This document shows positions 4,000 to 34,008 of a stretch of DNA of 34,008 bases, piece by piece. The translations under genes were made by a program, and so were the position numbers. The stretch comes from a virus. The stretch is taken from the IMG/VR virus record IMGVR_UViG_3300031539_000159; one strand, given 5' to 3'. A model generated the notes under the pieces. The model saw only the letters and a program-made list of their open reading frames with translations, ran no database searches and was not told the DNA's origin. Each line of letters starts with the position of its first letter. The first letter of the stretch is position 1.

Positions 4000-4725
4000 A
4001 TGGGGGCCGAAAGTCGGTTACTATACGACGAACGGCCCCTGGTTGTCATTCCCGAACTGGCCGTCGTTGTCGGGCTTAATAGTGCCATTGCCCTTCAACA
4101 AGTCCATTATTGGGTAAGAATCAACCAGCGGGCCGATAAGAATTTTCGCGAAGGTTACTACTGGACATATAATACTTACGAAGCCTGGCGTGAACAATTC
4201 CCCTTTTGGTCCATTTCAACGGTCAAGCGAATCTTCATGGAACTGGAAGCGGACGGCCTTATCGTGACCGGAAGTTATAACCGACTTCCGATTGACCGGA
4301 CGAAGTGGTACCGCATAAATTACGACCGCCTGGGCGAATGTGTCAAATTGATACAATGGTCGGGTCAGAATGAACCAATGGTGAGCTCAAAATGGCCTCA
4401 TGGTCGGCTCAATTTGACCTCACCATTACCAGAGATTAAAACAGAGATTACAACAGAGAATAGGGTTATAGAGATATGGACCGAAACTTTGGAACAACTG
4501 AAGCTTCAAGTCAGCAAGGCGAATTTCCGAACCTGGTTGAAGGATATTGTCCCGCTTTCATTCGACGGCGAAGCTTTCGTCGTCGGGGCCAAAAGCACCT
4601 TCATTGCCGAATACCTGAACCATAATCAGCGGTCCCTTGTTGAAAAGACCTTGACCGAAGTTGTCGGCCAGGCCGTCATATTCGTATGTCAGGTCGCGCC
4701 GGTCAAGGAAGGGATAAAAACATGA
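4000..4725 (+). CDS. Replication initiator/organizer: N-terminal winged-HTH domain plus C-terminal DnaA-domain-I-like domain
   Basis: The N-terminus (ALQQVHYW...YWTYNTYEAWREQFPFWSISTVKRIFMELEADGLIV) matches the phage replisome-organizer/DnaD-like wHTH pattern. The C-terminus (IWTETLEQLKLQVSKANFRTWLKDIVPLSFDGEAFVVGAKSTFIAEYL...VIFV) matches the DnaA N-terminal domain pattern. Confidence 0.7.
   Translation: MGAESRLLYDERPLVVIPELAVVVGLNSAIALQQVHYWVRINQRADKNFREGYYWTYNTYEAWREQFPFWSISTVKRIFMELEADGLIVTGSYNRLPIDRTKWYRINYDRLGECVKLIQWSGQNEPMVSSKWPHGRLNLTSPLPEIKTEITTENRVIEIWTETLEQLKLQVSKANFRTWLKDIVPLSFDGEAFVVGAKSTFIAEYLNHNQRSLVEKTLTEVVGQAVIFVCQVAPVKEGIKT
4342..4418. repeat. 10-bp inverted repeat GTCAAATTGA / TCAATTTGAC flanking the ori-like segment
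   Basis: Arms at 4342-4351 and 4409-4418 are perfect reverse complements. ATGGTCGG recurs between them (about 4356 and 4400). Confidence 0.6.
4430..4476 (+). repeat. Candidate origin iterons: four CAGAGATTA-like direct repeats with 12-12-15 bp spacing
   Basis: CAGAGATTA at 4430 and 4442, CAGAGAATA at 4454, ATAGAGATA at 4468. They lie in an AT-rich patch within the interdomain linker of the initiator gene. Confidence 0.55.
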
Positions 4726-4916
4726 AACCGAAAGTTATTGTCCGCGGCCGCGACCCGAATTGCGTCCATTATTCGGATATAGTCGGTACTATCGGGACGT
4801 GTCGGGAATGCGGTCAAGTCGTTGATTACCGTCCCTGTCAGGAAGGGAAGAACGAATTACTGGCCGCGAAGGGAAGGAAGGGGGGAAAGGCGTATGCCGC
4901 GATTTATAGCGATTGA
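4722..4916 (+). CDS. Small zinc-ribbon protein (64 aa)
   Basis: ATGA overlap with the previous stop. C..H...CRECG motif. The start is moved inward from ORF-track 4686. Confidence 0.5.
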   Translation: MKPKVIVRGRDPNCVHYSDIVGTIGTCRECGQVVDYRPCQEGKNELLAAKGRKGGKAYAAIYSD

Positions 4917-5394
4917 CCCTTCGACGACGTTCACGGGTTGGGCCGTGTTCCAGGACCAGGGGCTTATCGCCTGGGGGAAGATTGATTCCAGGAAGATTCC
5001 GTACGCCGACCGATTCCCCTTCATTATCGGCGAACTGTCAAGGCGGGCGTCGCAATACGGCGCCCAGGAAGTCGCAATCGAAGACGTCAAATTTGCCTGG
5101 CATTCGAAGAACCGGCTTCGGAATATCGCTGGACTTCAGGTCGTCTTCCGGTCAATCCAGGAATGGGCGAAGGGAATGGACTATCCCCTGGCGCCCTATA
5201 ATCCCGCGACCTGGAAGAACGCCGTCGTCGGGGCTTACGCCGCCCCGAAGGAAATCACGAAGAACAATATCCGGTACCGCTTTCCAGCGGTCCCCGACGA
5301 CTTGACCGACCATGAGTACGACGCAATCGCAATCGGGGTTTACCACGGCGGGCTTCGGTTCCTGGAAGCCCTGGCGGAAGGGGGGACGAATTGA
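4894..5394 (+). CDS. ruvC: RuvC-like Holliday junction resolvase
   Basis: FIAIDPSTTFTGWAV (Asp1), VAIEDV (Glu), KNAVVGAYAAPKE and HEYDAIAIGVYH (His/Asp) match RuvC catalytic motifs. AAGGGGGGAAAGG SD precedes the ATG at 4894. Confidence 0.8.
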   Translation: MPRFIAIDPSTTFTGWAVFQDQGLIAWGKIDSRKIPYADRFPFIIGELSRRASQYGAQEVAIEDVKFAWHSKNRLRNIAGLQVVFRSIQEWAKGMDYPLAPYNPATWKNAVVGAYAAPKEITKNNIRYRFPAVPDDLTDHEYDAIAIGVYHGGLRFLEALAEGGTN

Positions 5395-5600: not shown

Positions 5601-5899
5601 ACATATTCGACGAACTGGACGCGGCCCTGGCCGACGTGAAGAAGGAAGCCGCAAAGGTCCAGAATGAAGTCGCCGCGTTGCGTCGGGAACGTGACGGCGA
5701 AGTGTGGTACTGGCAAGGCGACGGGGGCGACAAACTGGAAAGCCTGACTTGTCCCGTTCTTATCGAAGCCGAAGACCTTCGCGCTATATTGGCAAGGACG
5801 GCCAGGTTCAAAAAAGCTATACAGGAATTGGAAGCTGAACAATGTTACGGGTTCCCGTCACTTTGGGAAGCATTGTCGGAAGGGGATAAAAAACAATGA
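5597..5899 (+). CDS. Hypothetical coiled-coil protein (Ea22-like C-terminal motif, tentative)
   Basis: ATGA overlap and AAGGGGGGAAG SD. The WYWQGDGGDKLESLTCPVLIEAEDLR motif recalls the ead/Ea22-like family, from recollection only. Confidence 0.5.
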   Translation: MNIFDELDAALADVKKEAAKVQNEVAALRRERDGEVWYWQGDGGDKLESLTCPVLIEAEDLRAILARTARFKKAIQELEAEQCYGFPSLWEALSEGDKKQ

Positions 5900-6705
5900 T
5901 ATACGAAACCAAAGGGCGCGCCAGGGAATACTTCGAACTGGCGGCGAATCTATATTCGGGTTGCGAACACGCTTGCCGGTATTGTTACGGGGCGGACGTG
6001 ACCCGAAAGGACCCGAAGGAATTCTTCGGGCGGGCGGTTCCCAGGGAAAACGTCCTGGAAGAACTGGAAAAGGACGCGGCCAGGCTTGCCAGGAAGAACG
6101 AAATCCGCCATATCCTTTTGTCGTTCGTGACCGACCCGTATCAACCCCTGGAAGAAAAGCTGAACATTACCAGGCGGGCAATTCAGATATTACACAGATA
6201 CGACTTGCCAGTCGCAATTCTTACGAAGGGGGGCTTTCGGGCGACCAGGGACTTCGACCTTTTGACTACAAAGGATAGGTTAGATATTTTGAGTACGGAA
6301 GACTTATTTGGCGTTACCTTGACCTTCATGGACCCGCGCCGGTCGCGGACCTGGGAACCAGGGGCGGCCCTTCCGGTTGACCGAATGAAAAGCCTGGACG
6401 ACGCACACGCCCGCGGGATTCCGACCTGGGTATCCCTGGAACCCGTCATTGACCCCGCCGAATCGCTGGCCCTGATTGAAGCGACGGCGAAATTCGTTGA
6501 CGTCTTCAAGGTCGGGACCCTGAATTATCCGAACAAGCTTCCCTGGGATTTACGGGACCAGGTAAGGGGGATTGACTGGAAGAACTTCGCGCGGAACGCC
6601 GTCCTTTTGCTGGACCGCCTGGGGGCGAATTACTATATCAAAAAGGACCTGGCGCGGCATATCGGAAAGCCCGAAGGAATAACAAAAGGAAATGTCCCGA
6701 CGTGA
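5896..6705 (+). CDS. Radical SAM enzyme, DNA-repair-photolyase/SplB (COG1533)-like
   Basis: CEHACRYC (CX3CX2C) lies near the N-terminus after an ELAANLYSG segment. The downstream SFVTDPYQPLE motif is typical of the SPL-like family. ATGA overlap at the start. Confidence 0.7.
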   Translation: MIYETKGRAREYFELAANLYSGCEHACRYCYGADVTRKDPKEFFGRAVPRENVLEELEKDAARLARKNEIRHILLSFVTDPYQPLEEKLNITRRAIQILHRYDLPVAILTKGGFRATRDFDLLTTKDRLDILSTEDLFGVTLTFMDPRRSRTWEPGAALPVDRMKSLDDAHARGIPTWVSLEPVIDPAESLALIEATAKFVDVFKVGTLNYPNKLPWDLRDQVRGIDWKNFARNAVLLLDRLGANYYIKKDLARHIGKPEGITKGNVPT

Positions 6706-7038: not shown

Positions 7039-7151
7039 AGATTTTAGTCGCGTCAATCCTTTTCGCCTTGTGGTCAGGCATTATAATTTATCAGATAATT
7101 GGCGCCAGGCGCGCAAGGCGTCGAATGAATCGGGAAAGGGGGACGAAGTGA
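7035..7151 (+). CDS. 38-aa single-pass membrane peptide
   Basis: GTG start in a GTGA overlap. ILVASILFALWSGIIIYQIIG hydrophobic helix followed by an RRARRR tail. Confidence 0.4.
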   Translation: MKILVASILFALWSGIIIYQIIGARRARRRMNRERGTK

Positions 7152-7669
7152 ATATCGGCGGAAGCATAAGTGGGGCAATCTTCGGCGACGGCCGCCGATT
7201 CCGTTATGCGCTTTGGCGAAGGTGGAAGAATTCCCCGAAGAACCTGGACGCGCTTCTTTTCATTGGCTTGAACCCGTCCACGGCCAACGGGACGAAGGAC
7301 GACCCGACCGTCGTCCGCATGATAAACTTCGCGAAGTCCTGGGGATTCGGCGGCCTATTCGTCGGGAACCTTTTCAGTATCGTTTCGGCCGACCCCGCCG
7401 TCCTTCTGACGGACACGTCGAAGGAATTATACGGCGGTCCGAACGACGCGGCAATCAAGCAAATGCGGAACCTTTGTTCCCTGGTCGTCGTCGGTTGGGG
7501 GGAATTCGGAAAGCGTGTCGGGTACCGGCCCGCGGCGGTCCTGGACCTGGTCGGGGAACCCGTTTATTGTATCAAGTTGAACCGTTCGGGCGAACCGTCA
7601 CACCCGTTATATTTACCAGGTAATTCGAAGTTGATTCGATATTACCGAAAGGGGGCTTGCCATGAATAA
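7148..7669 (+). CDS. DUF1643-like protein
   Basis: RFRYALWRRW...LLFIGLNPSTANGTKDDPTVVRMINFAKSWGFGGLFVGNLF matches my recollection of the DUF1643 signature. GTG start with AAAGGGGGA SD and a GTGA overlap. Confidence 0.6.
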   Translation: MNIGGSISGAIFGDGRRFRYALWRRWKNSPKNLDALLFIGLNPSTANGTKDDPTVVRMINFAKSWGFGGLFVGNLFSIVSADPAVLLTDTSKELYGGPNDAAIKQMRNLCSLVVVGWGEFGKRVGYRPAAVLDLVGEPVYCIKLNRSGEPSHPLYLPGNSKLIRYYRKGACHE

Positions 7670-7868
7670 GGCCCTGAACTTCAGCGAATTACCCGAAGAA
7701 ACGAAGAAGCAACTGGCGGGCGTGATTGGCGTTATCCCTGGGAAGTGGGAAGTTTACGCGAAAGTTTGGCTTCTGCTAATATCGTTGAATTCGCTGGCCG
7801 ACGCGAAGTGGGTCGTCAATAGACTTCGCCGCATACTGGATAACATGGGTAAGAAGGGGGAAGCATGA
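7662..7868 (+). CDS. Hypothetical protein (68 aa)
   Basis: CGAAAGGGGGC SD. Overlaps the previous gene by 8 nt. Confidence 0.55.
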   Translation: MNKALNFSELPEETKKQLAGVIGVIPGKWEVYAKVWLLLISLNSLADAKWVVNRLRRILDNMGKKGEA

Positions 7869-8233
7869 ACACAGATAAAACGGCGGCCATGCCGACCGAT
7901 AACCAACCAGCGGAACAACCCGCCATGAATCGGAAGCAACGCCGACAAATGGCGAACCTGGCGAAGAAGTACCGGCCGCGGGGGAAGTGCCCCTTCCCTG
8001 GTTGCGGGCATACCTTCTTCCAGGAAGACGGACAACCGAACGCGTGTCCTGACCATAGGAAGCTAATCGCCGACGTGTTATACATAGTGAATCATACAAA
8101 GACGGGGGAACCTGAAGCCGTCGGCGGCAAAGACGGGAAGCCGGTAATCTATGTCCCGAAGCCTGGCGTATCAATGCGAACGCTGGAAATTGAATTGGCG
8201 GCCGAAGCCGCGAAAGGGGGTAATAAACCATGA
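7865..8233 (+). CDS. Hypothetical protein with a CPFPGCGH...CPDH zinc-finger-like motif
   Basis: 122-aa ORF with ATGA overlap and GGGGGAAGC SD. Confidence 0.55.
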   Translation: MNTDKTAAMPTDNQPAEQPAMNRKQRRQMANLAKKYRPRGKCPFPGCGHTFFQEDGQPNACPDHRKLIADVLYIVNHTKTGEPEAVGGKDGKPVIYVPKPGVSMRTLEIELAAEAAKGGNKP

Positions 8234-9210
8234 CGGACTTAAAATTCAAACTATCATTCGACGAACGCGGACGGGTAATATATCAACCAGGTGACATTGT
8301 CGGCGTCCGCGGGGGCAAAGGACCGATACCCTGGTTATCTTACCATGCCATTGTCCCGCAAACTCCATTGTTCCATTTCCTTCTTATCGGCGACCGTATC
8401 GGAACGGAAGATTACGTTATCCTGGAAAGTATCGGGAAGGGTACCGCCTTCGGGCGGCTTTCCTGGTATAGGAATCGCGAACACGTTGTCTTCCGCGTGA
8501 ACCACGAAAACGCCGAAGATATGGGAAACCTGGCCGTCAACCTGGCGTCGAAGTTCGGCCGCCGCCGGTACGACTGGAAGCTATATGTCCGAATCTTCGC
8601 CTGGGCCCTGGGTTACTGGTTGAAGGAAATCCTGAAGCTTCACTTCCCGCCGCGGCCAGTTTACCCGACGCAAATCCCATATAAGACCGACCAGGACTTC
8701 ATTTGTATTGAACTGGTCTTCGAAGCCTGGAAGGAAGTCGGCTTCAGAATTCGGGAACACGGACACGCGCCGGTTCCGGCCGAAGTTATCCTGGCCGTGG
8801 ACCGCGGGGACCTGGAAGTCATAGACAACCACGACGGGAATCCCGCGAACTGGCGGAATCATAAGTCCCCGTTATACACGGCGGCCAGGCAAATCGCCGA
8901 AGACCATAAACCGAAAGCGGGCGGCGATATTATCGGACGCCAGGGCGGGCAAAAGCGGAATCGGGCCCATATCTACCGACAACCGTACGGGTACCCGATT
9001 CGCCTTTGCGATTGGGCCGCCGTTGACGTGGAAACAATCGAACGAATCGGCGAAGCCCAGGGACTATGCGGACCGGCGGAATTGCGCGTCCTAGCCGCCG
9101 TCCTGGATTGGGCGGAAGCCACGAAGGGCGCCGTTATCTGTAAGCATTGTCGGGCCCTGGCCAAAGGCGAACGCGGACCGCTTATGGGCGGACCTGGGGG
9201 GTACGCATGA
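8230..9210 (+). CDS. YiiX/YaeF-like permuted papain-fold (NlpC/P60 superfamily) hydrolase with a C-terminal extension
   Basis: GDIVGVRG...HFLLIG...VILESIGKG...RRRYDW...FICIELVFEAWKEVGF resembles the permuted NlpC/P60 order, with the Cys in the last motif. Identified by eye only. Confidence 0.4.
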   Translation: MTDLKFKLSFDERGRVIYQPGDIVGVRGGKGPIPWLSYHAIVPQTPLFHFLLIGDRIGTEDYVILESIGKGTAFGRLSWYRNREHVVFRVNHENAEDMGNLAVNLASKFGRRRYDWKLYVRIFAWALGYWLKEILKLHFPPRPVYPTQIPYKTDQDFICIELVFEAWKEVGFRIREHGHAPVPAEVILAVDRGDLEVIDNHDGNPANWRNHKSPLYTAARQIAEDHKPKAGGDIIGRQGGQKRNRAHIYRQPYGYPIRLCDWAAVDVETIERIGEAQGLCGPAELRVLAAVLDWAEATKGAVICKHCRALAKGERGPLMGGPGGYA

Positions 9211-11062: not shown

Positions 11063-11426
11063 TTGCTGGCAAGCTTGCGTCGCATCACTTCTGGAAATAC
11101 CCCTGGAAGAAGCGTTCGACTGTCGCCCTTATTGGGACCAGGGCGACGGGAAATGGTTCGACGATTTCAACGCCTGGTTGAAGGATTATGGCCTGGCCTG
11201 TATCGCCTTCGACCATACGGAAGAAAAGCCCCTTCCAGCGTCGCCTTTCCTGGGTTATCACCTGGGGGAATTCAAAAGCGCAACCTTGAAGAATGGGGAA
11301 ACCCATATATGCGTAATCCACAACGGGGACGTGGTCCATGACCCGAACCCACGGGCCGAAAGGGTTGGCGACGCATTGGGGTTATATCTATTCGTACCGC
11401 TGGACCCCGTGGAGTGGTCGAAGTGA
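11001..11426 (+). CDS. Papain-like cysteine peptidase (C39-like arrangement)
   Basis: GNCWQACVASLL is a candidate catalytic Cys after Asn/Gln. ETHICVIHNGDVVHDPNP is a candidate His/Asp. Size 141 aa. Confidence 0.45.
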   Translation: MKKIYQTTFGGVNAPDEEKGNCWQACVASLLEIPLEEAFDCRPYWDQGDGKWFDDFNAWLKDYGLACIAFDHTEEKPLPASPFLGYHLGEFKSATLKNGETHICVIHNGDVVHDPNPRAERVGDALGLYLFVPLDPVEWSK

Positions 11427-12328
11427 AAGTATTATTGCTTGACGTTGACGGAAAGCTTCCGAATATTGCCCTTCACAAGTTGGCGATATGGCACGAAGGC
11501 CAGGGCGACGAAGTGACCTGGAATATGCCGCTTTTCCTGAACCAGGCCGACAAGGTTTACATTTCAACAATACTGACGAAGTCGCGCCCGAAGGTTGAAA
11601 ACCTGGTTGGATTACGGCCCGACGCCGTCGTCGGCGGAACGGGTACCTGGGGCTGGTTCATTGACCCGCCGCCAAATTTCCTTCCTTGTCTTCCCGCGGA
11701 AGTTGAACTGGTCAAGGCCCGAATCAATTACGGGTTCACAACGCGGGGTTGTATTCGCCATTGTCCGTTTTGCCTGGTCCCGCTGGTTGAAGGAAATATC
11801 CGCGCGGTCGGGGATATATTCGACGTTTGGGACGGGAAGTCGAAGACCTTGACGTTATTCGATAATAATATCCTGGCCCTTCCGGAACACTTCGAAAGGA
11901 TTGTCACCCAACTGGTCGCTGAAGAACTGGTCGTTGACTTCAACCAGGGCCTTGATATTCGCTTGGTTACTTCTGGAATCGCCCGAATGTTATCAAGATT
12001 GAAAACAAAGGATATTCGATTCGCTTTTGATAGCCTATCGTTGGAAAGCGTTTTCCGTCGTAAAATAGACATATTGAGAAGTAACGGATTCCCGAATAAA
12101 TACTTCTTCGTTTATGTCCTGGTTGGCTTTGATACTACATTCGAAGAAGATATGTACCGCCTGGACGTATTGAAGGAATTAAAATGTCGGCCTTATGTAA
12201 TGCGCCATGAAAGAACGCCGAACGAACGAAGGTATAATGAAATGGCTTCATGGGCGAATCAACTATGGACTTTCGCGGAGTATAACTTTAGTGAGTATTG
12301 GAAATTCAGAACGGGGACAAACTTATGA
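11423..12328 (+). CDS. Radical SAM enzyme with an N-terminal Rossmann-like (B12-binding-like) domain
   Basis: TTRGCIRHCPFC (CX3CX2C) follows a KVLLLDVDG...ALHKLA flavodoxin-like N-terminus. GTG at 11423 has GGAG 8 nt upstream and a GTGA overlap. An alternative GTG is at 11414. Confidence 0.7.
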   Translation: MKVLLLDVDGKLPNIALHKLAIWHEGQGDEVTWNMPLFLNQADKVYISTILTKSRPKVENLVGLRPDAVVGGTGTWGWFIDPPPNFLPCLPAEVELVKARINYGFTTRGCIRHCPFCLVPLVEGNIRAVGDIFDVWDGKSKTLTLFDNNILALPEHFERIVTQLVAEELVVDFNQGLDIRLVTSGIARMLSRLKTKDIRFAFDSLSLESVFRRKIDILRSNGFPNKYFFVYVLVGFDTTFEEDMYRLDVLKELKCRPYVMRHERTPNERRYNEMASWANQLWTFAEYNFSEYWKFRTGTNL

Positions 12329-31127: not shown

Positions 31128-31210
31128 AAATCACCCAAAAGAATGACCCGAATCGCCCGAAAGTATGACCCTTTCGGATAACCAATTCAGCTTCAATTCG
31201 ATATAGGGGC

Positions 31211-31240
31211 TTGACAAGGGCAATACATATCCTTTATACT
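31211..31240 (+). promoter_or_regulatory. Sigma70-type promoter P2 (TTGACA-18 nt-TATACT)
   Basis: TTGACA at 31211-31216 and TATACT at 31235-31240. The 19-mer CTTGACAAGGGCAATACA is identical to P3. Confidence 0.65.
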
Positions 31241-31281: not shown

Positions 31282-31512
31282 ATGAACATACCGTTGGTTG
31301 AAATACTGAAGTTGGAAACCAGGCTTCCGTTGCGCCTGGTCGAAATCAACGCCGCCCTTCTGGAAGACATTCAGAAGAACGGTATCCTGGAACCCGTCGA
31401 AATCAGGATTCGGGAAGACGGGTCGCGGATACTTTGGGACGGTCTTCACAGGGTCAAGATTGCCGCCGCCCTGGGCCTGGGATTCGTACCCGTATTCTTC
31501 AGGGAAATGTAA
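31282..31512 (+). CDS. Stand-alone ParB/Srx-like N-terminal (nuclease) domain protein
   Basis: 76 aa. LEDIQKNGILEPVEIRIREDGSRILWDGLHRVKIAAALG matches the ParB N-terminal domain pattern (G.l.Pi.v...y.li.G.HR..Aa..lG). No HTH or dimerisation domains. Confidence 0.6.
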   Translation: MNIPLVEILKLETRLPLRLVEINAALLEDIQKNGILEPVEIRIREDGSRILWDGLHRVKIAAALGLGFVPVFFREM

Positions 31513-31521
31513 AGGGGTCAC

Positions 31522-31704
31522 ATGGAAGAAAAGATAATCGCCGGAATGGAAGAAGCCGAACGGAAAGCCTGGGAAGCCCTGGGCCGGTACAAGTTTCAAG
31601 TGTTCGGATACTGGTCCGGAATCTGGATTCACCTAAACAGGATTTCGGGCCTGAAGAAACCGAATCCGTTCAAAGACCTGGTCGCATTGGCAAGGACCAG
31701 GTAA
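31522..31704 (+). CDS. Small hypothetical protein (60 aa; KFQVFGYWSGIWIHLN motif)
   Basis: AAAGGGGTCAC precedes the ATG. Confidence 0.5.
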   Translation: MEEKIIAGMEEAERKAWEALGRYKFQVFGYWSGIWIHLNRISGLKKPNPFKDLVALARTR

Positions 31705-31709
31705 TCAGC

Positions 31710-31727
31710 GCGGGGTTCCTTCCCCGC
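31710..31727 (+). terminator. Short GC hairpin after gene 31522 (weak terminator/processing candidate)
   Basis: GCGGGG-TTCCTT-CCCCGC. No U tract. Confidence 0.25.
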
Positions 31728-31799
31728 CGTCGTGGTCCGAAAGGTCGGGTCCCGACGGGGCGGAAGAAGCCCGAAATAAACGAAAGGGGGCGAAAGGAC

Positions 31800-32003
31800 A
31801 TGGCGAAAATAGGTAACGAAGCGAAGCTTATCCTGAAGCTGGCCGAAGAACGTATCCAGGCCAAAGTCAAAACGCATGGCGACGAAGCCGCAAACGCGGA
31901 CGGCCAGGATAGCAAGCTGGCCACGGCATACCGGAACAAAGCCGCGGGCATGGAAGAAGCTTTGGCAATCCTGAAATCAATATACCTTGAACTGGAAAGC
32001 TAA
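31800..32003 (+). CDS. Small helical hypothetical protein (67 aa)
   Basis: CGAAAGGGGGCGAAAGGAC precedes the ATG at 31800. The upstream part of ORF-track 31434 is Arg-rich out-of-context sequence. Confidence 0.5.
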   Translation: MAKIGNEAKLILKLAEERIQAKVKTHGDEAANADGQDSKLATAYRNKAAGMEEALAILKSIYLELES

Positions 32004-32030
32004 CGAAATAAAAACCGAAAGGGGGAACAA

Positions 32031-32432
32031 ATGATTATTTGCGAAACCGAATTCCAAGTACCCGACCGGAACGACCCCGAAATCGCCTTGACCGAAGTGG
32101 ATTATTACGCCTGGATACCACAGCCCGCGGACGTACCCAATCACCGGCTTTCATTACGCTTCCGATTCGCGACCGGCCATTACGAACTATATCGGAAGTA
32201 CGTTACAACCCACGTGGCGGCCATTGTGGGGCCCCGTGGGGGCGGTATCTTCGGGGTCCAGCATAAGCCCGACGGTAACGAACAAACTATCTTCACCGAT
32301 AAGGACCTGGGGAAGGTGATTGACTATGCCGAAGGCGAAGTGAAGAAATACCACGGATACGACAAAGCGAAGGACCAGGTTTGTAACCATGAAGGCCGCG
32401 GTCGCGCCTTCGGTTGTAAGGTGGGGAAATGA
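32031..32432 (+). CDS. Hypothetical protein (133 aa), translationally coupled to the Topo VI-A-like gene
   Basis: ACCGAAAGGGGGAAC SD. ATGA overlap with the next gene. Confidence 0.6.
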   Translation: MIICETEFQVPDRNDPEIALTEVDYYAWIPQPADVPNHRLSLRFRFATGHYELYRKYVTTHVAAIVGPRGGGIFGVQHKPDGNEQTIFTDKDLGKVIDYAEGEVKKYHGYDKAKDQVCNHEGRGRAFGCKVGK

Positions 32433-33289
32433 AGTACGAAGCAACCGTCGCCGCCGTCAACCGTGTAATCAACCAGTATTCAATCCCGCTGACCCTTCGA
32501 CAAATCTATTATCGGCTTGTCGCGGCGGGTCTTATCCCGAACCGCCGTTCCGCTTACAACGGGCTTTCGTCCCAACTGGTCACGGCCAGGGAACGGGGCG
32601 AAGTGGACGAAAACCGAATCAACGACCGTTCCAGGTCCATTGAAGACCGCGCGTTCAATACTCCAAACGACTTCCTGGACGCGATAATCTGGACCGCGGA
32701 AAACAAGTTCTTCCGCCGTTACTGGACAACCCAGGAAGTCTATTGCGAAGCCTGGGTCGAAAAGGACGCCTTGTCCCAGGTAATCGCGGGGGCCGTCGAA
32801 GACCTGAATACAATCGTCGCGCCGTCCAGGGGATATTCTTCGTTTTCCTATATCCGCGCCGCGGTCCGCCGATTCCAGGGGAACCACAGAAAAGCGAAGC
32901 GGGTCGTCGTTCTTCACTTGACCGACCATGACCCGTCGGGCCTGGATATGACCAGGGACCTTCAAACGCGCTTCAGGGCTTATTCGTCGCGCCAGGTAAT
33001 CCAGGTCAAGCGGATTGCGCTGACCTGGGACCAGGTCCAGGAATACAACTTGATTCCGAACCCGACGAAGATTACCGATTCGCGGGCCGCGGGATACATG
33101 GAAAAGTACGGGGACGAATGTTGGGAACTGGACGCAATCGAGCCCGACGAACTGGTCCGCCTGGTCCAGGACGCCGTCGAAGGGGAAATCACGGACCGCG
33201 AAGCCTGGGAAGAAGCGAAACAAAACGAAGCTTCGGAACGGGAAGAACTGAAGGACCTATTCGACGAACTGAAGGACAAGTATCAATGA
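32429..33289 (+). CDS. Topoisomerase VI subunit A/Spo11-like protein (5Y-CAP + Toprim, mini-A-like), no B subunit
   Basis: LTLRQIYYRLV (candidate catalytic Tyr27/28 in a wHTH), AWVEKDAL (Toprim Glu111), LTDHDPSGLDM (DxD 166-168) and CWELDAIEP. The spacing is similar to Topo VI-A. Confidence 0.6.
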   Translation: MKYEATVAAVNRVINQYSIPLTLRQIYYRLVAAGLIPNRRSAYNGLSSQLVTARERGEVDENRINDRSRSIEDRAFNTPNDFLDAIIWTAENKFFRRYWTTQEVYCEAWVEKDALSQVIAGAVEDLNTIVAPSRGYSSFSYIRAAVRRFQGNHRKAKRVVVLHLTDHDPSGLDMTRDLQTRFRAYSSRQVIQVKRIALTWDQVQEYNLIPNPTKITDSRAAGYMEKYGDECWELDAIEPDELVRLVQDAVEGEITDREAWEEAKQNEASEREELKDLFDELKDKYQ

Positions 33290-33456
33290 AAACAATCTTG
33301 AAAATCGAATGTATGTATTGCCGAAAGGCAATGGGTGAAGTGGACGGCAAGGGGACCGAAGGAATCAGTCATTCCATTTGCCCGACGTGCTGGTCCGAAT
33401 GGTTCCCTGGTATCCCTTACCCCGAAAATAAAACCGAAAGGAAGGTATCAAAATGA
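33286..33456 (+). CDS. Small zinc-ribbon protein (56 aa; CMYC...CPTC)
   Basis: ATGA overlap with the Topo VI-A-like gene. Confidence 0.5.
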   Translation: MKTILKIECMYCRKAMGEVDGKGTEGISHSICPTCWSEWFPGIPYPENKTERKVSK

Positions 33457-33809
33457 AACCGACTTATAGTGAACTTCAAGATTACCTGGCGCGTCAATTC
33501 TGTATCGGTTGTCCTGACCAGGGGCCCGACGGCGCCGGAAGTGGGGAAGGTTGCGAAGATTGTCCGGTAATGGACGTTCCGACTGAACCTTATCCCGACA
33601 AAGAACCAGCGGACAAGCCCCTGGGCCTGGACGCTTTGGCGATTGCGGGGCTTGAAACGCCCCACGAAATCATTATCGCGGTCGCCAACCTTTCCAGGGA
33701 AGGCGAACAAATTATGCTTCGGAAGCTTGCCTGGGCCCTGGCAGAAACGGGCGAACTCGAAAACCGCCGAATGCTGAAGGAAGCATTGACCGCCGCGTCC
33801 CTGGTATGA
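33453..33809 (+). CDS. Hypothetical protein with a CIGC...CEDC motif
   Basis: 118 aa with ATGA overlap. AACCGAAAGGAAGG SD. Confidence 0.55.
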   Translation: MKPTYSELQDYLARQFCIGCPDQGPDGAGSGEGCEDCPVMDVPTEPYPDKEPADKPLGLDALAIAGLETPHEIIIAVANLSREGEQIMLRKLAWALAETGELENRRMLKEALTAASLV

Positions 33810-33810
33810 C

Positions 33811-33840
33811 TTGACAAGGGCAATACAAAGGCGTTACAAT
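33811..33840 (+). promoter_or_regulatory. Sigma70-type promoter P3 (TTGACA-18 nt-TACAAT)
   Basis: TTGACA at 33811-33816 and TACAAT at 33835-33840. It drives gene 12..1331 across the circular junction. Confidence 0.65.
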
Positions 33841-33865: not shown

Positions 33866-33881
33866 AAATAACCGAAAGGAA

Positions 33882-34008
33882 GGGGGTTCAAAATGACAAT
33901 GGGACATTGTAAGCATGGGGAATTCGAACTGACGAAAGGTTGTCCGCAATGTATCGCGGAACGCCAGGCGGCCCAGGAACGGGAAGACGCCGAAGTCAAT
34001 TCGCCCGA
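33882..34008. repeat. Second copy of the 127-nt terminal overlap
   Basis: Identical to 1-127. Confidence 0.9.
33893..34008 (+). CDS. Duplicate 5' fragment of gene 12..1331 (assembly overlap, not a separate gene)
   Basis: Same sequence as 12-127. Confidence 0.85.
   Translation, partial: MTMGHCKHGEFELTKGCPQCIAERQAAQEREDAEVNSP

Follow-up and report, generated by a model that had tools for sequence, protein, structure and literature searches.

Mini-A proteins and a further example from an uncultured phage

Mini-A, a subfamily among the A subunits of type IIB topoisomerases, was described in 2019/2020 and has since been referred to in reviews and in papers on viruses. The name was given by Takahashi, Da Cunha, Krupovic, Mayer, Forterre and Gadelle (Takahashi et al. 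2020, NAR Genom Bioinform, PMC7671362), who defined the members as proteins of about 300 amino acids (aa) that are encoded in viruses and proviruses of bacteria and archaea, and that share conserved RxxY/FY, E and DxDxxG motifs along with a subfamily-specific C-terminal T2BI box, xWELDAL, which separates them from topoisomerase VI (Topo VI) and Topo VIII. These authors also reported that the N-terminal 5Y-CAP segment is generally missing in Mini-A, that a B subunit is missing from the gene neighborhoods, and that no "Mini-B" could be found. Here we consider the Mini-A gene carried by the IMG/VR virus record IMGVR_UViG_3300031539_000159, a stretch of 34,008 nucleotides (nt) that is referred to in its entirety as the window. 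The gene occupies 32429-33289 on the + strand and encodes a protein of 286 aa. An earlier note on this DNA had read the product as a short, stand-alone protein of the Topo VI-A/Spo11 type, and had mentioned stand-alone mini-A proteins of mobile elements, known from bioinformatics, to which no function was assigned; this agrees with PMC7671362, and the papers from 2021-2026 that were searched assign no function either.

All four of the published Mini-A motifs are present in the 286-aa protein, which carries every sequence element of the published definition. From its N terminus the protein is predicted to contain a partial 5Y-CAP winged helix, a Toprim domain, the C-terminal T2BI box and a long C-terminal helix. 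The R24-Q-I-Y27-Y28 motif (32498-32512, with Y27/Y28 at 32507-32512, + strand) lies within LTLRQIYYRLV, and Y28 is the predicted catalytic tyrosine. The Toprim acidic residue E111 (32759-32761, + strand), in WVEKDAL, falls at the end of a predicted strand (residues 104-110), and the predicted metal-binding motif of the Toprim domain, DxDxxG, is D166-H-D168-P-S-G171 (32924-32941, + strand) in LTDHDPSGLDM. The T2BI box of the Mini-A type is W232-E-L-D-A-I237 (33122-33139, + strand), with the xWELDAL signature; it is preceded by C231, and CWELDAIEP extends through residue 239. The four motifs that the earlier note had pointed out (RQIYYRLV, VEKDAL, DHDPSG and ELDAIEP) are thus found where it had placed them.

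The same residues stand out when homologs are aligned. Among 30 homologs with at least 48% identity (alignment A1), 54 positions are invariant, including R24, Q25, Y28, D166, H167, D168, S170, G171 and W232-A236. A broader set, alignment A2, has 93 representatives, all of them 33-45% identical to the query except one at 69%; its invariant positions are R24, Y28, R54, E111, G135, D166, D168 and G171, and E233, L234, D235 and A236 are each conserved in at least 90% of the sequences. Position 27 is sometimes F, and Y28 is therefore the candidate catalytic residue. A lack of conservation of the motif residues, which had been named beforehand as evidence that would count against kinship with Topo VI-A, is not what the 93 homologs show: R24, Y28, E111, D166, D168 and G171 are invariant in all of them.

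The family to which the protein belongs is large. PHROG 6247, labeled "DNA topoisomerase", matches the protein over its full length (E 1.7e-71), and tblastn returned 79 cultured-phage records with 36-44% identity over 84-98% of the length. The latter include the Roseobacter phages RDJL Phi 1/2, Pseudanabaena phage Pam3, the Pseudomonas phages NP1, PaMx25 and JG054, Listeria phage LWP01 and the Flavobacterium FPSV phages, as well as Xylella, Salmonella, Brevundimonas and Microbacterium phages, and many of these homologs are annotated as "DNA topoisomerase" or "DNA topoisomerase VI". In a database clustered at 90% identity, more than 7,700 homologs were scored; at 50% identity, 6,892 metagenomic clusters matched with E ≤ 1e-3 and 794 with E ≤ 1e-30. 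The identical 286-aa protein occurs on 10 public contigs, and relatives at least 70% identical to it are metagenomic only. The number of homologs and clusters and the invariance of the motif residues argue that the 286-aa reading frame is a genuine gene and no chance open reading frame (ORF). Judged by its sequence, the product is an ordinary, typical member of Mini-A, and its novelty had been overrated, since the family is large, known and already annotated as "DNA topoisomerase" in phage records. Pfam, NCBIfam and PADLOC returned nothing significant for this protein or for the 133-, 56- and 118-aa products of the genes adjoining it. Four homologs with 51-58% identity (P0076, P0084, P0093 and P0112) lie on contigs that were binned as Dehalococcoidia/Chloroflexota or, in one case, Candidatus Asgardarchaeum; this binning could be a hint of host range or a mis-binning of viral sequence.

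Distance from Topo VI-A and Spo11

The confident AlphaFold2 model of the protein (predicted local distance difference test, pLDDT, 87.3; predicted template modeling score, pTM, 0.80) has an N-terminal helical/winged domain with helices at residues 3-15, 23-32 and 40-55, a beta-alpha-beta Toprim-like core at 104-197 and a helix at 257-285. A Foldseek search of PDB with this model gave a single significant match, to chain 9o0g_C (E 4.5e-4, probability 1.0), which is Topo VI-A from a DNA-bound M. mazei structure, and the PDB matches listed include no JetD structure. The corresponding search of the BFVD viral models returned no named Mini-A or topoisomerase.

Sequence comparisons also point to Top6A, as a remote relative. 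Neither phmmer nor a profile of close homologs matched any PDB sequence. When the profile of the 93 homologs was used, M. jannaschii Top6A (1d3y) ranked first, at a level below significance, with DHDPSG aligned on DGDPYG; in a separate stretch, which is non-significant and has a negative score, TLRQxYY stands opposite TLREAYY of 1d3y. The tyrosine of TLREAYY is residue 35 of the 1d3y chain, which we take to be the catalytic Tyr103 of Top6A. A comparison by hhalign with a Top6A Toprim profile gave E 3.3e-5 and a probability of 72%, with DxD over DxD (DxDPYG); that profile was built from Toprim fragments of at most 141 aa found with an 81-aa 1d3y query, so the test covers the Toprim half only. 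The 93 homologs were also scanned singly against Pfam at E ≤ 1, counting the families matched by three or more members. These sub-threshold matches went to DUF2399 (15 homologs), TP6A_N (9), DUF7281 (5), TOP6A-Spo11_Toprim (5) and JetD_C (3), all of which, with the exception of DUF7281, are CAP/Toprim relatives. A 371-aa protein on another contig (L093) scores with both the Mini-A profile (E 2e-5) and the Pfam model of the Top6A Toprim domain, though in the latter case weakly.

The structural match, the first rank of 1d3y and the hhalign result bear out the proposal of a short Topo VI-A/Spo11-like protein, and on the strength of these sequence and model comparisons we regard Mini-A as a genuine but distant homolog of Top6A/Spo11. 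It is not an ortholog, because it lacks the B-binding N-terminal segment, a B subunit and a C-terminal box of the Topo VI type, and because it falls below the Pfam thresholds. The long and highly charged helix that follows the WELDA box (residues 257-285; 33197-33286, + strand) contains W260 and R271, which are invariant in close homologs. This helix is not known to have a counterpart in Top6A, and it may be an element for dimerization or for binding a partner.

The phage genome

The first 127 bp of the window are identical to the last (1-127 and 33882-34008), and this direct repeat implies that the assembly is circularly closed and represents a complete phage genome of 33,881 bp. The products of 46 + strand ORFs of the window were scanned against Pfam and PHROGs. 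The structural genes detected include the large and small terminase subunits, a portal of the Mu type, a head protease, the major capsid protein and tail proteins, and there is a fiber-like protein of 1,264 aa. This is a tailed phage, with Mini-A in the early, DNA-metabolism arm of its genome. The scan also recognized a RuvC-like resolvase (4894-5394) and, at 4000-4725, a DnaD-like protein of replication initiation that contains a DnaA_N domain (replication-initiation PHROGs, E 1.6e-41). A DNA polymerase, helicase or primase was not found among the 46 proteins at the Pfam and PHROG thresholds used, and the scan likewise found no SMC-like genes. The claim that the genome contains no GHKL ATPase held up at the sensitivity of profile hidden Markov models, in that none of the 46 proteins matched a GHKL/HATPase domain at Pfam E ≤ 1e-3. 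Proteins of 439, 303, 326 and 232 aa were left without annotation by these scans.

The genome also encodes two radical-SAM proteins (5896-6705 and 11414-12328; Pfam Radical_SAM, E 8e-12, and phrog_9298, E 1e-66) and a DUF1643 protein (7148-7669; E 6.6e-34), which occur here in a small phage without nucleotide-metabolism genes. Annotations related to base modification or nucleotide metabolism are found for several of the cultured phages with Mini-A; Pam3 has aGPT-Pplase, and NP1 is classed in Queuovirinae. DUF1643 was encountered again when ten long homologs of Mini-A were checked for domain fusions. The only fusion among them joins DUF1643 to Mini-A in a 457-aa product (P0174, at 5001-6374 of contig L096). 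We rejected it as a true fusion because DUF1643 is truncated, the linker seems to be in another frame and the contig, to go by its name (ctg666396_2x_l), apparently has 2x coverage; the most likely origin of the product is a frameshift that lets two neighboring genes be read as one. On that contig Mini-A has DUF1643 immediately upstream and a DNA methylase immediately downstream. Of the 80 loci whose gene neighborhoods are compared below, 2 have DUF1643 within 6 kb of Mini-A.

Genes and promoter-like elements around Mini-A

The Mini-A gene had been assigned to a cassette of four translationally coupled genes, and the layout of that cassette was verified in every coordinate. A gene for a 133-aa protein (32031-32432, + strand) precedes Mini-A, and genes for a 56-aa protein (33286-33456, + strand) and a 118-aa protein (33453-33809, + strand) follow it, with ATGA overlaps at all three junctions (32429-32432, 33286-33289 and 33453-33456). 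The description of the last two genes as a zinc-ribbon gene and a Cys-motif gene also stands, each product having two CxxC pairs: C9/C12 and C32/C35 in the 56-aa protein, which resembles a zinc ribbon (DZR_2 matches weakly and below threshold, E 0.024), and C17/C20 and C35/C38 in the 118-aa protein, which belongs to no known family. The 133-aa protein represents a small family of 39 clusters with the invariant residues D12, E22, D24, W28, N37-H-R-L40, R43, E52, Y54, H108, C118 and C129. Its AlphaFold2 model (pLDDT 87.8) consists of a beta-sheet and one helix and had no fold match in PDB (best E 0.32), and searches of Pfam, PHROG, NCBIfam and PADLOC with the protein gave no match.

The four genes do not form a unit of their own, as had been supposed, and are in fact the last four of a seven-gene stretch (31282-33809) bracketed by two promoter-like elements. 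The first of these, P1 (31210-31241, + strand), has the form TTGACA-18-TATACT and lies upstream of the stretch, while the second, P2 (33810-33841, + strand), has the form TTGACA-18-TACAAT and starts the next unit; each has 11/12 matches. Their first 18 nt are the same. This 18-mer, CTTGACAAGGGCAATACA, with the perfect -35 hexamer inside it, occurs in exactly two copies in the window (31210-31227 and 33810-33827), with 0.03 expected by chance. Judging by their fit to the consensus, which is the basis of the assignment, P1 and P2 are probably sigma-70-like promoters. The three remaining genes of the stretch encode a 76-aa protein (31282-31512, + strand), first after P1, with a weak likeness to a ParB-like N-terminal region (phrog_26387, E 5e-4; phrog_7527, E 5e-5), and proteins of 60 aa (31522-31704, + strand) and 67 aa (31800-32003, + strand) that belong to no known family, have no PHROG match and are called as genes on the identical contigs. 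The unit that begins at P2 contains the 439-aa gene, whose true start is at 33894 and which runs on at 12-1331 across the junction of the circle; the order is confirmed by another contig (L001). A repeated leader, AA(A/T)AACCGAAAGG(G/A)(G/A)G, is present at 31775-31790, 32010-32025, 33423-33441 and 33867-33882, where it closely precedes the starts of the 67-, 133-, 118- and 439-aa genes, and it looks like a shared ribosome-binding region.

The neighbors were compared across 80 viral contigs carrying the Mini-A relatives closest to this protein, out of at least 571 that were confirmed; dereplication at 60% Mini-A identity left 35 lineages, from which two genes on each side were taken, so that the comparison covers a part of the family. 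The 56- and 118-aa genes are restricted to contigs with the identical Mini-A. In contig L007, whose Mini-A is 78% identical, the gene upstream is an unrelated one of 337 aa and the gene downstream encodes a 54-aa hydrophobic protein; in contig L008 (73% identical), the 133-aa gene is retained with the same overlap and both of the small Cys genes are missing. Homologs of the 133-aa protein are also found two genes downstream of Mini-A (L088), 3 kb from the distant Mini-A-like gene of L093, and, in L090-L092, with no Mini-A within 4 kb. These differences do not support a functional four-gene cassette. They indicate instead, as far as gene content can tell, that the 133-, 56- and 118-aa proteins are lineage-specific products of small early genes and neither obligate partners of Mini-A nor parts of a conserved system. 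The 18-mer of P2 is exactly conserved in L007 (7046-7063), at the equivalent place, though the genes between Mini-A and P2 differ, so that this stretch acts like a slot of variable content in which small accessory genes are lodged. Such a slot is a better explanation of the 56- and 118-aa genes than membership in a functional complex.

The only neighbor common to this phage, L007 and L008 is the 439-aa gene (7151-8551 and 7281-8327 in the two relatives), and it was found at 3 of the 80 loci. Its product, which is larger than any other non-structural protein of the phage that lacks an annotation, begins with a zinc-ribbon-like C-x-H-x(10)-C-P-x-C and has no Pfam or PHROG match. The commonest neighbors occur at no more than 17 of the 80 loci, many of which come from the same few samples; by eye they resemble a helix-turn-helix protein and an SNF2-type helicase. 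No Pfam family of neighbors recurs in more than two of the 35 lineages. The neighbors that could be recognized are mostly concerned with DNA metabolism (AAA_24/Sak4, DNA methylase, SNF2, UvrD and ResIII helicases, PDDEXK nuclease, ligase, Pol A and ThyX), and in cultured phages Mini-A lies beside DNA polymerase, ligase, Sak4 recombinase, Cas4-type exonuclease and helicases. No conserved "Mini-B" neighbor was found in the 80 loci and 35 lineages, and no GHKL among the neighbors in the 35 lineages, which agrees with the earlier unsuccessful search for a "Mini-B" (PMC7671362).

Possible roles of Mini-A

We think it probable, by analogy with Top6A and Spo11, that Mini-A is a homodimeric, Mg2+-dependent enzyme that breaks and rejoins DNA through its tyrosine and serves the replication or recombination of the phage. 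Two protomers would dimerize on duplex DNA, and the tyrosine of one, together with the Mg2+-bound Toprim site of the other, would attack the backbone to form a 5'-phosphotyrosyl link at each of two composite sites. As there is no ATP-operated gate, the reaction would more likely consist of breakage and rejoining that needs no ATP, or else of a nick or double-strand break made in a programmed way. The enzyme would then contribute to the replication, recombination or resolution of phage DNA, for which the phage also has a RuvC-like protein, and would not act as a strand-passage topoisomerase.

Several results weigh against such an enzyme. The global template modeling (TM) score of the Foldseek match to 9o0g_C is just 0.36, which may reflect a different arrangement of the domains; the profile match to 1d3y is non-significant (E 0.3); and the 286-aa protein has no match to TP6A_N (PF04406) or TOP6A-Spo11_Toprim (PF21180) even at E ≤ 1. 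The weak likeness to Toprim domains of the JetD type leaves room for a purely hydrolytic nuclease, and the unannotated 439-, 303-, 326- and 232-aa proteins leave room for a non-canonical partner. Finally, no biochemical work on any Mini-A was found in the literature searched, up to mid-2026.

Other roles have to be weighed against tyrosine-mediated breakage and rejoining. For skuldviruses, which have Mini-A and no other recognizable replication protein, it has been proposed in the literature that Mini-A initiates replication, in which case a site-specific nick with a tyrosine-linked intermediate would prime rolling-circle or sigma replication in the manner of an HUH endonuclease. The tyrosine and the metal-site residues fit this chemistry, and a polymerase, helicase and primase went undetected in the present phage. 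However, such an initiator is less needed where a dedicated DnaD-like/DnaA_N initiator-like protein is already encoded, many phages with Mini-A have full replication modules of their own, and one wyrdvirus is described in the literature as having an HUH Rep plus Mini-A; we consider an initiator role unlikely. Somewhat less likely still is a reading in which Mini-A supplies the DNA-cleaving core of a genuine type II topoisomerase and borrows the ATPase, whether a host GHKL protein (e.g. one like GyrB, ParE or MutL) or an unrecognized "Mini-B" of the phage. Takahashi et al. (PMC7671362) left this possibility open, and the phage does have several unannotated proteins; one of them is the 439-aa protein, whose gene also lies downstream of Mini-A in the closest relatives, L007 and L008. 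That gene, however, is present at just 3/80 loci, and GHKL was found neither in this genome nor among the neighbors of the 35 lineages.

A third role would make Mini-A a Toprim nuclease that acts by hydrolysis, in the manner of JetD or OLD, and that degrades or cuts host or competitor DNA or counters a defense without religation. This reading draws on the sub-threshold Pfam matches, which favor the JetD type of Toprim (DUF2399 in 15/93, JetD_C in 3/93) over that of Top6A (5/93), and on the company of small early genes behind a predicted consensus sigma-70-like promoter. JetD is regarded as a hydrolytic nuclease, and cutting of that kind would leave the invariant Tyr/Arg motif of Mini-A unexplained; the Tyr and Arg of RxxYY would be superfluous in a purely hydrolytic enzyme. 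Moreover, PADLOC gave no JetD match, Foldseek gave Top6A as its sole significant PDB match and no JetD, and the gene context is one of replication and recombination rather than of anti-defense islands, all of which make a nuclease of this kind quite improbable. Very little credence, in our judgment, attaches to the four coupled genes as one machine, in which the 133-aa protein and/or the zinc-ribbon proteins would regulate or target Mini-A in this lineage. The ATGA overlaps at all three junctions, the retention of the 133-aa/Mini-A overlap in L008 and the nearby homolog in L088 speak for it, but such overlaps are common across compact phage operons, the 56- and 118-aa genes are missing from L007 and L008, the unrelated 337-aa gene takes the place of the 133-aa gene in L007, and in L090-L092 homologs of the latter have no Mini-A within 4 kb. 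The 133-aa protein was rejected as a partner on account of its fold without a PDB match and its inconsistent co-occurrence with Mini-A. A related and equally improbable idea, that this protein might serve a DNA-breaking machine independent of ATP as its regulatory or targeting subunit without GHKL (a novel type of "Mini-B"), derives from its confidently predicted fold without a PDB match, its conserved acidic, His and Cys residues and the coupling kept in one relative.

Comparison with known systems

Within the Topo VI/Spo11 group, Mini-A is the sole branch to occur without a partner subunit, and an activity of Mini-A would bear on the origin of the type IIB topoisomerases and of Spo11, the enzyme that makes meiotic breaks, as well as on the use that phages make of such an enzyme. 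The setting of the present copy is a small phage with an initiator-like protein and RuvC, in which polymerase, helicase, primase and GHKL ATPase were undetected. Beyond documenting the lack of a conserved gene neighbor (35 lineages from the 80 closest loci), this copy adds little. The question of function concerns the entire family. As an experimental model, this copy would offer no advantage over those of cultured phages (NP1, RDJL Phi 1/2, LWP01 and Pam3), in which the question is better pursued.

Among the more distant relatives, Wadjet JetD and DUF2399 share with Mini-A a broadly similar type of Toprim domain, and members of the Mini-A family match them weakly and recurrently in Pfam; in contrast to JetD, Mini-A has no PADLOC JetD match and no JetABC partners beside it. 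Topo VIII, the plasmid-borne type IIB enzyme in which B and A are fused, has a C-terminal half that belongs to the same family of type IIB A subunits as Mini-A, whereas its fused GHKL/transducer half and its RVELNAM box are both missing from Mini-A. The closest parallel outside the subfamily is with Top6A (1D3Y, 9O0G) and Spo11, which share the combination of a CAP-like winged helix with Tyr and a Toprim domain with E and DxD. The spacing from the tyrosine to the DxD is similar, 138 residues in Mini-A compared with 146 in the chain numbering of 1d3y, where the tyrosine is taken from the low-scoring stretch of the alignment. Compared with Top6A, Mini-A is about 100 residues shorter, has a WELDA box instead of the Topo VI type, and has only about 20 residues before the Tyr-bearing helix, so that the N-terminal 5Y-CAP segment that binds Top6B is missing. 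A B partner with GHKL and transducer domains, or one of the Top6BL type, as in Topo VI-A/Spo11, is detectable neither in the genome (Pfam E ≤ 1e-3) nor among the neighbors of the 35 lineages. In all of these respects the protein resembles the Mini-A proteins already known, such as gp23 of RDJL Phi 2, gp49 of NP1, Pam3_41 and that of Listeria phage LWP01. Like them it is viral, has no detected B subunit and stands alone, with about 300 aa and the same motifs; nothing of substance sets it apart, and what is particular to it is an uncultured host phage of 33.9 kb and a set of immediate neighbors that is specific to its lineage.

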